A stretch of 63,462 nucleotides of DNA, the filler included, from Octopus bimaculoides (lineage: Eukaryota): assembly GCF_001194135.2 (NCBI RefSeq). It is 4 parts of 4 records of this genome, joined end to end, with 100 filler letters (N's around TTAATTAATTAA, not from the genome) between each part and the next. Parts side by side here need not be neighbours in the genome. Positions count along the whole stretch, not along the records: positions 1 to 28,463 come from NC_068981.1; positions 28,564 to 47,730 come from NC_068983.1; positions 47,831 to 61,260 come from NC_068990.1; positions 61,361 to 63,462 come from NW_026319891.1. The stretch is one strand, 5' to 3'. Each line of letters starts with the position of its first letter. Position 1 is the first letter of the stretch. The notes under the pieces were generated by a model. It was not told where the DNA came from. It searched no databases and saw only the letters and a list, made by a program, of their open reading frames with translations. The position numbers and the translations under genes are program-made. This document shows, one piece after another, positions 2,124-61,585 of this stretch.

Positions 2124-2162
2124 GCCAAATGCATTTCAGCAGAACTTGCCTTGTCAATTACA
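2124..2162 (-). ncRNA. Degenerate type I hammerhead relic
   Basis: TTGACAA-GGC(aagttct)GCT-GAAA-TGCAT-T; core has two changes from CUGANGA. Confidence 0.3.
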
Positions 2163-2391
2163 TATTTTTGCTAGTCGTATGCCTTGACGAGTATCATGTC
2201 CTTCACTCAATGCTGTATGTATGTTATGTATGACAATTAACATATTATAAATAGTTGTTTTAATTTAATGCTCTTTCAGTTGCGTACACCGGGTTTTTAT
2301 TCAGCCCGGTGATTATTACAGTGTGTTATTTATTATTTCCTTTATATCCGAGAAGACAGGCTTCGCCTTGGCATGTGACTCGCAAAAACAT

Positions 2392-2430
2392 GTAAATGAA
2401 ATGGCCCAGGAAGGCCGAAACACATCTGGT
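2392..2430 (+). ncRNA. Degenerate type I hammerhead relic
   Basis: ATGAAAT-GGCC(caggaa)GGCC-GAAA-CACAT-C; stem II and GAAA intact, core decayed. Confidence 0.3.
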
Positions 2431-5400
2431 GATTTAGCGAATCACTGACAGGACGAATTTTCGTCTCGTTCCGATATGTACATGGTGCTTTTAGTTCGGT
2501 ATGTCTTTGAAGAGCTTTTTACTCAGACGAAAAATGTTCAGCATCATGTCTCTCAATACCGTATATACGTTAAATATGATATATAGATGGCTATTTTAAT
2601 TTGATGTTGTTTCAGTTACGTACACCGTGTTCATAACTTGAACTTTTTTTTTTTTATTGATCGAAAGGTATGATGCTCTTGATCAGATCCTGGACACAGA
2701 ATATATAGGGAAGTATAAAGCAAAATTAGTACAAACTATTTAGTCCAACCTACCACAGTTTCTATCATTTCACGTCGTCATCACACATTGTATGTCTGGT
2801 TGTTGTTAAAGTCGGTAATACGAGACCCTAGGTTAAGCTTTAACCAGCAGACTTACAGACCTTCCATTTGTTACATTTATTGCTTTTCCCCTATATACAG
2901 AGAAACCAGTAATATAATATGTAACATGTACATTTTCAAGACTATAGAGTATGATTTGAAAGATATTTAGCTACTAGTTCTAACAGGTCGAACAACACCG
3001 TAAAGGCTCTTTTGTTGATTCGATATGTCCGGCTGTTGTAGCTGTTTCACTCCAGCTCATTCCTGATTAAGCAAGCCTATATACAGAAACATTTTAGTCA
3101 TCGCCTCCCGCGTTTTTCCAATAGCAGGAAACTGAGGACCACATTATCCACTATGTCCAATCTTAACACGGTAGGTTATGATTTCAGGGAGATCTAACTG
3201 CTGTCTCTAGCAAACCGAATGACCATGCAGGGACTCTTTTGCTGACTCGGTATATAATGTCTGGTGAAGCAGTCGGATGAATTCTCAAAGGAAGGAGCCA
3301 ACTGAAGCATCATTTCACAGTCAGTCGGCCAGCTAGCGAGCCAACCAATCAAAACAAAGAAACCACCGTAGCTTTTTCTGATTGACAGACGGTTTGGTGC
3401 CCGCCTCCTACTTATATCTACTCTGTGTGTGTATGGTGGGGGTGTGTTTTCCATCTTACTGACACTGCTGATTTTATTTTCCCTTCTTGCGTCAATCGTT
3501 CTTTATTCACTCATTCATTCTTATATTTAGTCCACACAACACAGACGCTCTTTCTCTCATTATTCACTCTCTCTCCATCTCTCCATCTTTCACTCTCTCC
3601 CCATTTCTCTCTCCATCTTTCTCTCTCTATATCTCTTTCTCCATCTCTCTTTCCATCTCTCTCTATCTCTCTCAGCACAGACACACGCTCACACACAAAC
3701 ACACACACATATATACTTGCTTTGCATCGCTAATTTTTTAGATGTTATTTCTATCTGCTATATATTTATCGGTCTTATACGTACATACACACACACACAC
3801 ACATACACACAAACACGCACACACACACACACACACACACACACACATACATATGTATGTACGTACATATCTATGTGGTTTAGAAATCACTCGCTTGAAA
3901 GCTTGAACCGTTTGCTAGTGATTTTAGGTGACTATGTAATCGCGAGCAGACGCAGGTGTGCTCTTGGCCCTCTCATCTTTCATCCATCGGAACATCTACG
4001 ATGTGACATCCGGATAGAGAGAACTTCATCAGCACCCGACTGAAAGACACCTCACCACACGCACAAACACATTCTCTTTCTCTCTCTCTCTCATACAGAC
4101 ACACACACATACACACACAGATAGATAGATAGATAGATAGATAGATAGATAGATAGATAGATAGATAGATAGATAGATAGATAGATAAATAGATAGATGT
4201 TACCCAGGAAGGAGTATAGCTTGTTTGGTTGGATTGTGCTCGATTGGTCGTATTGTGGTTGATTTTAAACCAAAGATCAACCATGTTTGAGAATAACAGT
4301 GATCGAATGAGTTCTATTTCTGGCCGTCTGGTGTATACAGGGGATTGCTCTACACACCCCAAATGTATCCTTATCATATTTAAGACGGTGGCGTGTGATT
4401 TAGATAATTGGCTGCTGTTTCGAGAAGTCCACTTAAAGGATCATTTATTTGCTTTTGGTTACGTTGTGTTGTTCTTGCTCAAATCACTTAACTTAGCTTC
4501 AATCTATCGGAGCTACAGTATGTGCATCCGGTTGGATCTTGAGATCGATGGCTTCAGTCAAGTTTTGAACCACATGATGTAATATACACGCCCACGCTGG
4601 TTTATCCACATTGCCGTAGCCAAAGTTATGTACTACAAATGGGCGTCCATTCAATTTTCCACCTCTCGGCTCCATGATGATACAAGCTCATAAAAATAAA
4701 CCTAAGCTACTTATCTATGCAGAAGGAGAAGAGGGACGATGTTTAATACACATTGTACTCCGTCCACTATCTAGTTTGTTCTTTAAGCTTCAACGTAATG
4801 ATGGTGACCACAGCCGGTGTTAGAAATACTGAATCATTTAAAGAGGTACAGTTTCGCTTCTTCTGAGCGTTTAACTGTTAGTGTTCATTCCAGGACAAAG
4901 TTTAAAACTGTCAGTGTTACTTGAGTTATTACTGCTGCCGTTATTTCTGCTGCTGTTGCTGTTGCAGTTGCTGCTGTTGCTGTGCTGTTTCTATTTTATG
5001 TATTACTGAATTGAGCGAGAGGGATCATTTCTTTAAATACTTCTACAAACGTGTTCTGCGTCATTGGCCTAGATAAGCAAAATTAATAGCTTCATCAAGG
5101 TTCGTGAAACTCTTTGATTGCAGAAGGCTATTTTCACAGATATGTGTATTGGACAATTTAAAGGTATAAACACAGAGAAAGAGAAAGAGGAAGGGGTGAA
5201 AAAAAGAAAAAAAGAAAAAAGAAAGAGAAAGGAGAGGAAGCCTTCTATGTGAAATTGAAATGGTTTTCCCCTAATTCGAAATATATAAAATATATGAAAT
5301 TGTTTTGTATAATTCAAGTGACGGTAATACTGGTAAACACCATGCATGGCACTCTTACTGGTTAGCGCTGAACTGAGTCATTGGTTGGTGACTGCAAATC

Positions 5401-6457
5401 TATAACAAGAACAATAGGTGCTAGAGGTGCTGAAACAACAAACTGTGTCTCTGGAAAGTCCAGATGGTCTTTCATTTTGATTTTTTTTGTTTTTTGTTTT
5501 CACTTCGTTGTGTCGCTCTGCTCAACTGAAAAATTACTGCGACAGATTCAAAATGATGGGTGAGTTAGAGATGGTTGCGGTGACAACAACGCTGATGTTA
5601 TATTACTGCTGCTGTTGTTGTTGTTGTTGTTGTTGGTGGTGGTGGTGGTGGTGTATTTGGATAAAGTGATGACACCGATGTTGAGTGTATTAGCAGAGGT
5701 GCTGGTAGCTGTGGCTACGCTTATGGTTTGAAGTTGTCATTATAGTGAACTGAACTTTATGGTTGCAATTTTATTGTTAATTACGATGACAGCATCGGTA
5801 ATACTATGCTTTCCTCTATATCTAAAGTCGATATGGCACTGTCATGTATTTGTGACAATAGTGGTGGTGGTAATAATGTCATTGCATGAGAGTCTTTCAT
5901 GACCTAAGTTTTAAATTTTTTTCTCCATTCACGGAGTTAGAAATATATTAACATTTATCCATTCAATCCATAGCGTGATTAACATTTAAAATATATATAA
6001 AACTTAGTTTGAAAAGAAACAGCACGTGCCATAACATTTCCAGGTCTAGTGTTCGTCAATGGACCAGGAGTTTGATTGAGATTAATAAGGCTGAACTTCA
6101 AACACCCTCATCTTTACCCATAGGTAAATTATCAAATAAACCATGTGTTCTTTAGATGGTCCGTGTTTCCCATCTCTTTAATTTGCATTAAGTTCTAGCA
6201 CCGATTATTGGGTGAGTCGTTGTGTACACTTCTTGGTTAATTCTCTCACTTGGCTGACGTAAAATCGTACTGCCCAGGAGTAATGAGGAGTAGATAGACA
6301 GCCGACAACAGATGAATGGTCGTTTCTCTGTGTTTACTTGTCCTGTTTTCCATTTTTTCTCTCGTTGTTTACGTATTTAACTCGTGTTTGTCTACGTATT
6401 TCATATTGTGTACACAGTTGGTGACGTCCTGTACATATAAATGCGTATATATCTTAG

Positions 6458-60099: not shown

Positions 60100-60194
60100 G
60101 TGTGTGTGTGTCTGTGTGTATGGATAGATAGATAGATAGATAGATAGATAGATAGATAGATAGATAGATAGATAGATAGATAGATAGATAGATA

Positions 60195-61260
60195 ATCCGG
60201 TCTCCCCATAAGTTCTGTCCGATTTTACTTTTTTAACATTAAATGAAATTTAATAGTGTTTTAGAATGTCTAATGAAATTATAAATTATTTTTATGCATT
60301 TGTGTACATTTATACTAATTAAATATTATCTTCCAGAAAAATAGAATTAGAATTTGTTTGATTAAAATCCCTTTCTAACATGGAAGTATCCAAAGAGCAT
60401 TTAAGGCACATAATGCTTTATGAGTACAAAAAAGGAAACTCTGCAGCCGAAGCGACTTGAAACATACACTCAGTTTATAGGAAAGAATGCTTGAATGAAA
60501 GAACTTGCAGAAGATGGTTTGCAAAATTTAGAAGTGGAGATTTCAGCCTTGAAGATGAAGATCGAACAGGACATCCAGTTGAGTTTGATGATAAGCTCTT
60601 TGAGACATTACTTGAAGAAAATCCTCCATTATCAGTCGAAGAATTGGCAATAAAGCTTAGTTCAAACCATACAACTGTTCATCGTCATCTTCAACAACTT
60701 GGAAAGGTTCCTAAACTTGGAAAATGGGTGTCTCATGAATAGTCCGAAAGCAACCGCAAATCCAGTCGCGAACTTATTTCACACTTTTTTGGATAGACTT
60801 GTGACTGGTGACGAAAAATGGATCTTCTATCGAAATATTAAACGTTGTAAACAGTGGCTTGGTAAAAGGGAAATAACTCAACCACAACCAAGAAGGGAAC
60901 TTCATGGAATAAAGTTCTTCTCTGTATCTGGTGGGATTGCAAAGGAGTAATTCACTTTGAATTATTACCACCTAATGCAAAATCCAATGCTCAAGTCTTC
61001 TGTCAACAATAAGAAAGTTTGAACCAAGCTTTGAAGTAAAAAAATTTCCCGCTTTAGTAAATCGAAAAGGAGTGATGTTTCGCCAGGACAATGCGCGACA
61101 CCACACTGCAAAGATCACATCACAGAATATCGAAGAGCTTGGTTGGGAAAAAATTCCTCATCCATCTTATTCTCCCGACCTTGCTCCTTCAGACTACCAT
61201 TTGTTTCGTAGTTTACAGAATCATTTGGGGGACATAACTTTCGCAAGCCAAGAGGAGGTC
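60195..61260 (+). mobile_element. mariner DD34D transposon (left TIR and disrupted transposase)
   Basis: ATG at 60380 MEVSKEHLRHIMLYEY; WFAKFRSGDFSLED, KWVSHE, VTGDEKW, QDNARHH, YSPDLAPSDY (34-residue D-D spacing); in-frame stops and frameshifts. Confidence 0.92.
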
Positions 61261-61558
61261 NNNNNNNNNNNNNNNNNNNNNNNNNNNNNNNNNNNNNNNN
61301 NNNNTTAATTAATTAANNNNNNNNNNNNNNNNNNNNNNNNNNNNNNNNNNNNNNNNNNNNTGTGTGTGTGTGTGTGTGTGTTTGTGTGCGTGTGTGTGAA
61401 AGTATAGATGATAACTAAGTATAGATCTAAGTAGATATGACACGCATTTTATTTGTAAATCTCTCTTCTCAATCTCTCACTCGAACTCATTCTCTCACTC
61501 TCCCGGTCCCTCTGTGCTATTCTTTTCCTTCTCTCCAGACCTTTCTCCTCTCCTCTTT

Positions 61559-61585
61559 CTGACGAAGAACCATGCTAGAAACGTC
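61559..61585 (+). ncRNA. Minimal Penelope-type hammerhead relic
   Basis: CTGACGA-A-GAAC(cat)GCTA-GAAACGTC; core intact, stem II has two mismatches, no clear stem I. Confidence 0.4.

Follow-up and report, generated by a model that had tools for sequence, protein, structure and literature searches.

Hammerhead motifs in a repeat-rich stretch of Octopus bimaculoides DNA: probable 3' ends of Penelope-like elements and a likely non-LTR retrozyme

A stretch of Octopus bimaculoides DNA of 63,462 nucleotides (assembly GCF_001194135.2; four parts of four records joined end to end, together called the window) contains hammerhead ribozyme motifs, a fragment of a Penelope-like open reading frame (ORF) and a transcribed 349-nt tandem unit, which are probably the scattered 3' ends of several families of Penelope-like elements (PLEs) plus one superfamily of retrozymes without long terminal repeats (non-LTR retrozymes) that likely borrows PLE enzymes. 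Part of the motifs lie in short fold-back elements, and this shape is likely an ordinary insertion scar, not a new element class. The original prediction had proposed about a dozen hammerheads from unrelated families, forming one large class with an undescribed inverted-repeat architecture. Its core was correct: dimer-type hammerheads associated with PLEs and retrozymes are real, and all six palindromes that it quoted are present at the named sites. A separate class marked by the inverted-repeat architecture is not supported. The sites also comprise at least two kinds of sequence, Penelope 3' ends and a tandem retrozyme, and they are mostly decayed, with one false positive among them. They are new families of known elements, and the fold-back layout itself is already published for PLEs (PMC8557442), with opposite-strand pairs in PMC4209133.

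PLE insertions frequently lack their 5' part and have an inverted, likewise 5'-truncated copy beside the upstream pseudo-LTR; one end carries a tail of 30-40 bp, and the targets are microsatellites (PMC8557442); the same layout is given as curation advice in PMC8969392. Dual minimal hammerheads located ~100-700 bp apart on opposite strands, as well as a U3-A8 variant of the hammerhead core, have been published (PMC4209133); a U4C core variant considerably lowers activity in vitro (PMC3088659). In vitro, a PLE protein can cut DNA that is rich in AT and extend its two strands, and a dimer is predicted for it; according to the same source, ribozyme cleavage is unnecessary in vitro and RNA-seq ends are absent at the cut (PMC11167929). 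The role of PLE hammerheads is held to be unclear in the literature (PMC8557442). Metazoan non-LTR retrozymes include mussel units of ~350-390 bp (PMC7229834), and such retrozymes have been proposed to be non-autonomous PLE derivatives (bioRxiv 10.64898/2026.07.22.740005). A repeat annotation of an octopus from 2026 lists 31 recently active Penelope-like families, and the words 'ribozyme' and 'retrozyme' are absent from its main text (PMC13282606). We found no report of the present hammerhead families or of a cephalopod retrozyme in a literature search whose coverage largely excluded subscription papers.

Two of the three intact hammerheads of the window belong to two related units:
56791-57139, no strand assigned, 349-nt retrozyme unit, followed by 33 nt of an adjoining unit (57140-57172) and with an assembly gap at its left
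57000..57044, minus strand, intact canonical type I hammerhead of this unit (site 56994) with an 8-nt palindrome and a predicted cut after 57006
42165..42500, minus strand, single retrozyme-like unit related along its full length to the 349-nt unit
42360-42401, minus strand, intact U3-A8 hammerhead of the single unit, not mentioned in the original prediction

Reads were mapped to 56788-57200 from three raw RNA runs and one set of DNA contigs (X4), that is four of the 24 listed runs, and the RNA mapping drew on ~6% of each run. The unit is transcribed, with 851, 830 and 626 RNA reads in the three runs, corresponding to 54-69 per million records (strand not resolved), and 5,420 DNA contigs match it. 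In all three RNA runs reads connect 57139 back to 56791 (64, 45 and 43 reads), which sets the unit at 349 nt and makes the 33-nt direct repeat part of an adjoining unit; interpretation of this repeat around 56994 as a target-site duplication was rejected on the same ground. The back-joint is equally compatible with a circle and with tandem read-through, and the RNA mates are split about equally between the strands. The joint was not seen in the DNA contigs; these are short, so this was counted neither way.

Compensatory changes across copies, which the original prediction had named as a check, are seen in the stems of the 349-nt unit. The palindrome pair 57013/57008 changes from C-G to U-A at matched per-position frequencies (0.80/0.81, 0.81/0.81 and 0.91/0.88 in RNA; 0.62/0.63 in DNA), the extended-stem pair 57051/56995 changes from U-A to C-G in RNA, and the stem I pair 57042/57002 from G-U to A-U across copies. 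Position N17 is A in 51-59% of the reads. At core position 4 the family majority has C (163/206, 153/185 and 144/153 RNA reads, or 79-94%; 82% of DNA depth), unlike the window copy at 57037, which retains the canonical U4. C at this position was also observed in the motifs at 35519 and 23695. The single unit at ~42165-42500 aligns end to end with the 349-nt unit (BLAST core match E 1.8e-4), and its stem sequences differ yet still pair. The circular folds of the two units are predicted to be more stable than background (z = -4.9 for the 349-nt unit, z = -4.1 for 42165-42500), and in homodimer folding the cores 57038 and 42395 are predicted to form the exact double hammerhead, at 5.5 and 6.4 kcal/mol below two monomers.

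By unit length, type I hammerhead, transcription, self-pairing and compensatory changes, the 349-nt tandem unit fits a non-LTR retrozyme. It resembles the metazoan examples in being a tandem unit with one type I hammerhead (PMC7229834; bioRxiv 10.64898/2026.07.22.740005), in its GC content of 43.6% (criterion <45%), in a size within ~170-400 nt, and in its strong self-pairing, heterogeneous copies and transcription. It differs in the cephalopod host, in the U4C core of most copies and in the U3-A8 core of the related unit; moreover, cleavage and circles are known for retrozymes of other animals, whereas here both are predicted. A direct repeat of 205 bp with 100% identity (42459-42663 and 46883-47087) is either a recent duplication or an assembly artefact.

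The window is repeat-rich animal DNA with 34% GC, 6,236 N and 105 rows of tandem repeats, and its SINE-like repeats have a cephalopod appearance. The search for motifs used a descriptor of the type I hammerhead, made up of stem I, the core, stem II, GAAA, the palindrome and NUH, with local dinucleotide shuffles as the control. At the strict canonical tier two matches were obtained (core 41886 on the plus strand and core 57038 on the minus strand) versus none across 113 shuffles. With two core mismatches permitted there were five matches versus a shuffle mean of 1.19, and two of the 113 shuffles reached five. The loose tier gave 12 matches versus a mean of 8.6, with 19 of 113 shuffles reaching 12, so that the motif by itself does not lift a total of about a dozen over chance. 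The two published core variants, U3-A8 and U4C, were admitted to the descriptor after the sites had been seen, and with them three exact matches (41886, 57038 and 42395; mean 0.01) and five one-mismatch matches (mean 0.18) were found, neither number being reached in 500 shuffles. The full type I core (canonical or published variant) with GAAA, NUH and stems I and II occurs at these three cores, while nine named sites lack part of this set and 2157 has the core with stem I at 4/6. Further descriptor matches lie at 41170 and 31976; with palindromes of 4 nt made up of A and T only and a stem II of 2 bp, they were taken as chance. Two weak hammerhead-like half motifs at 16684-16777 (minus strand, palindrome anchors near 16734 and 16640) are at background.

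Scores per site were compared with 1,500 random stretches of the window (95th percentile 20.1, 99th percentile 22.1). Half of the 12 named sites, namely 56994, 41880, 2124, 35513, 28922 and 55595, exceed the 99th percentile, and the remaining six fall short of it. In descending order the scores are:
56994, 29.0; 41880, 28.0; 42395 (not in the original prediction), 27.5; 2124, 25.5
35513, 24.0; 28922, 22.6; 55595, 22.5; 23695, 21.3
59854, 21.0; 61559, 21.0; 9439, 20.5; 49591, 20.0; 2392, 18.5

Besides the hammerheads of the two units, the individual motifs are:
2122..2163, minus strand, type I hammerhead (site 2124) with a U3-A8 core without mismatch, stem II of 4 bp, 6-nt palindrome and stem I at 4/6
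2390..2432, plus strand, decayed sister motif (site 2392) with a background-level score, backed by homology with the opposite arm
23687..23809, plus strand, decayed minimal hammerhead (core 23695) and tail, of a family shared with 61551-61677
28919..28957, plus strand, hammerhead-like motif (site 28922) with a perfect core, stem II shortened to 2 bp and stem I at 5/6
35513..35555, plus strand, near-intact hammerhead with stem I at 6/6, 6-nt palindrome and a core one change off the U4C variant
41880-41940, plus strand, intact canonical hammerhead within fold-back element C, with a predicted cut after 41934
49589..49624, minus strand, decayed hammerhead-like motif (site 49591) that lies downstream of the Penelope ORF, 173 nt from its stop, and 54 nt before (TA)n
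61551..61677, plus strand, decayed minimal hammerhead with a perfect core (61559) and broken stem II, whose tail terminates in (TA)n

In total, three type I hammerhead motifs of the window are intact and about eight are worn, and they likely belong to known parasites. Of the predicted dozen, two are fully canonical (41880 and 56994) and three are near-intact (2124, 35513 and 28922), while six are decayed, with scores in the background range or close to it, and depend on context for support, and 59854 is chance. The designation as unrelated families was overstated: 2124 and 2392 are parts of one element, 56994 and 42395 lie in related units, and 23695 and 61559 represent one family, with 64.6% identity over 130 nt (E 1.9e-5) and homology that extends ~90 nt beyond the motif. 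For 28919..28957 no family support was found within the window. A (TA)4 lies within 250 nt after the predicted cut at six of 13 sites, versus 16% of random positions. Standard RNA models miss the motifs, as had been predicted: Rfam gave zero hammerhead-family matches among 138 in the window at E up to 5. A pattern scan of metagenomes gave 0 matches.

Site 59854 was rejected as a ribozyme: it belongs to another repeat, and in the second copy of that repeat (2942-3117, minus strand, 62% over 181 nt, E 2e-8) both the core and GAAA are missing; further copies of this repeat lie near 30420 and 39500. The repeat is SINE-like, with an apparent tandem restart after ~200 nt (2942-3220, 30420-30620, 39500-39730 and 59646-59900), is the source of the false 59854 motif, and no hammerhead was seen in it. 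The inverted pairs 30212-30333 / 35860-35981 and 39110-39984 were set aside as dispersed copies of the SINE-like kind.

Masked self-BLAST revealed five short inverted-repeat elements (1991-2596, 9403-9700, 41808-42067, 55541-55744 and 59492-60098), so that all five of the elements predicted exist, although the fifth is without a supported ribozyme. A hammerhead motif lies inside the other four (A-D). The five elements and their parts are:
1991..2631, no strand assigned, element A, with an inverted 5'-truncated copy at ~1991-2225 (minus strand)
~2232-2296, plus strand, short upstream partial copy or pseudo-LTR of element A
~2340-2631, plus strand, main copy of element A, whose final ~33-35 nt (2597-2631) overrun the inverted repeat on one side only
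9316..9700, minus strand, element B in (TA)n, with a decayed hammerhead (site 9439, predicted cut after 9445) and arms 9403-9444 and 9659-9700
41808..42067, plus strand, element C in (TA)n, with 59-nt arms (96.6%) flanking the intact canonical hammerhead
55541..55744, no strand assigned, element D, a near-complete palindrome of two truncated copies (site 55595)
59492..60098, no strand assigned, element E, an inverted-repeat element whose centre is occupied by a different repeat

In elements A-D the arms cover the ribozyme position and the sequence 3' to it; their 3' ends face outward, and they are likely 5'-truncated copies of the 3' end of a retroelement. The arms of element A are homologous (2070-2190 versus 2363-2484, 65.6%, E 1.5e-9), a direct match links 2190-2295 with 2540-2631 (E 2e-10), and the motifs 2124 and 2392, one per arm, are ~270 bp apart on opposite strands, which is within the range of the dual motifs of PMC4209133. 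Element A alone shows an inverted 5'-truncated copy, a partial tandem and a one-sided tail of ~33-35 nt, and in this it matches the published PLE layout (PMC8557442); B, C and D have the inverted copy only, and the extension of B is ~87 nt. In B the short arm starts exactly one base past the predicted cut. The arms of D are homologous and each retains a different half of the motif: the minus arm has GAAA, palindrome and cut site (55602), and the plus arm has a core-like heptamer at 55646-55652 and has lost the GAAA segment. The elements are flanked by microsatellite, either (TA)n or else (CA)n/(TG)n, in which a TA target-site duplication is indistinguishable. The microsatellites beside E mirror each other, with (ATCT)n(AC)n at the left (59359-59491) and (TG)n(GATA)n at the right (60099-60194). 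Both element C and the unit at 42165-42500 lie within a span of 1,571 bp that is bounded by a 37-nt inverted repeat (94.6%; 41747-41783 / 43281-43317), and this we take for a separate fold-back or DNA transposon that hosts nested insertions.

The coding evidence for PLEs is a single fragment:
49791..50519, minus strand, 3' part of a Penelope-like ORF with the end of the reverse transcriptase (RT) region, a Cys-x4-Cys-x2-Cys linker and a GIY-YIG endonuclease; an assembly gap interrupts it upstream

The ORF at 49794-50438 shows 60% identity to the 659-aa protein P0001, which combines RT and GIY-YIG, and the fragment 49806-50519 has 54% identity to its residues 415-653 (tblastn E 3.7e-75). With two PLE proteins as queries, tblastn matched one place in the window. 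P0001 has RVT_1 above the Pfam cut-off and a weak GIY-YIG, and in a Pfam scan of seven chosen ORFs of the window the GIY-YIG was below the cut-off (E 0.0028); the Cys linker is visible in the translations of both. Such a linker (CX2-5CxxC) before GIY-YIG is of the type seen in Neptune and Nematis PLEs. The motif at 49591 has two core mismatches and stem I at 3/6, and its position 173 nt after the stop is as for a 3' pseudo-LTR.

The dispersed motifs are like the hammerheads in pseudo-LTRs of endonuclease-bearing PLEs (PMC4209133, PMC8557442) in being type I with a short palindromic helix III and in the U3-A8 variant, in occurring mostly as single, dispersed, truncated copies, and in opposite-strand pairs 100-700 bp apart; the inverted 5'-truncated copy, one-sided tail of 30-40 bp and (TA)n targets are also PLE features. 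They differ in that the families are not in the main-text passages of these two sources on the subject, and most copies are only 200-640 bp. Elements A-D and the single motifs would be PLE 3' ends. During insertion, reverse transcription would begin on both cut strands and end early, and two short cDNAs joined head to head would give the fold-back, with the hammerhead near the 3' end retained once or twice and the tails outward; the PLE protein, which cuts and extends both strands (PMC11167929), offers a ready route to two outward-facing cDNAs. The palindromic helix III would pair two copies, each cutting the other. Lunse et al. reportedly described dimer-cleaving PLE hammerheads in 2017. For the tandem family, cutting in the dimer would release 349-nt monomers that then circularise, and this family may be moved by PLE enzymes. 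Most dispersed copies have decayed since and are likely inactive.

Several observations weigh against this reading. No pile-up of read ends was present at the predicted cut in the three RNA runs, the U4C core of 79-94% of the RNA reads of the unit is the variant with reported lower activity in vitro, and the motif at 57038, folded alone as a monomer, has a predicted stem I probability of only 0.01-0.02. The dimer folds predicted for 35519 and 41886 have the palindrome paired and the core mispaired. The covariation was derived from frequencies at each position rather than from reads that link the two, and among the DNA contigs the 57051/56995 change is uncommon (0.17/0.01). A covariance model built from five window motifs recovered only 41880-41940 outside its training set (E 0.0048), with nothing further in the window under E 0.6. 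Physically adjacent to the PLE ORF is only 49591, a weak motif at about the 95th background percentile (20.0), and no short element was tied by sequence to an autonomous PLE within the window.

Could the fold-backs instead be non-autonomous retroelements of a class of their own, in which the entire inverted-repeat unit is transcribed and re-inserted? Inverted arms and a hammerhead motif occur together in four elements (204-640 bp), and three of eight half-motifs fall in the five elements (versus a mean of 0.08 in 500 shuffles; the elements are 3.5% of the non-N sequence and were chosen after the fact). However, the reach of the arms relative to the cut site is different in each element (upstream in A and D, exactly at the cut in B and 74 nt downstream of it in C). 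Element A has the partial tandem and the tail on one side that result from PLE insertion, no second whole copy of any of the elements A-E occurs within the window, and published accounts treat the layout as a by-product seen in individual copies of PLEs (PMC8557442, PMC8969392). We regard a whole-unit class as quite improbable. We consider it very unlikely that the fold-backs are miniature inverted-repeat transposable elements (MITEs) of DNA transposons in TA sites with chance or captured motifs. Like MITEs of the Tc1/mariner or hAT type they are short and non-coding with terminal inverted repeats in TA-rich flanks, and DDE transposase fragments are present in the window, but A-D differ in arms of unequal reach, as in truncated retroelement 3' ends, in one-sided tails where A and B overrun the inverted repeat, and in ribozyme parts that lie inside the arms of A and D, and the motif of C is perfect and beyond shuffles. 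Element E, without a ribozyme, may be a true MITE and is the sole candidate that remains.

There is similarly little probability that the named motifs beyond the best three or four sites are chance matches in AT-rich repeat DNA. The loose descriptor count (12 versus a shuffle mean of 8.6), the six sites under the 99th percentile and the demonstrated chance match at 59854 are in line with chance, whereas independent context exists for 2392 (arm of 2124), 23695 and 61559 (one family), 9439 (arm that begins at the cut) and 49591 (behind the PLE ORF), though not for 28922. PLE insertion, as the preferred reading, leaves room for a more specific proposal that we regard as unlikely, namely that the ribozyme shapes insertion: palindrome pairing would tether two RNAs, a dimeric PLE enzyme would prime one per cut strand, and the cleaved 3' product could be the template. 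In that case the inner ends of many inverted arms should be exactly at the cut, as in element B, one of the four elements.

Other coding remnants in the window are:
32660-33960, minus strand, decayed and LINE reverse transcriptase-like by eye, with two ORF pieces without Pfam match
44259-45623, minus strand, DDE transposase fragment (DDE_3, E 3e-11)
57175-57990 and 60260-61260, plus strand, mariner-like DDE transposase fragments by eye, the scanned pieces without Pfam match

What the analysis contributes is a likely retrozyme of a cephalopod with an expression level of tens of reads per million, and this family would be an abundant one in which the slow U4C core is the majority form. Rfam models do not see short Penelope scars, which could end up classified as MITEs. 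If the junctions of inverted arms cluster at the cut genome-wide, this bears on what PLE hammerheads do, and insertion shaped by the ribozyme, if true, would give these hammerheads a role that is testable from the genome alone.

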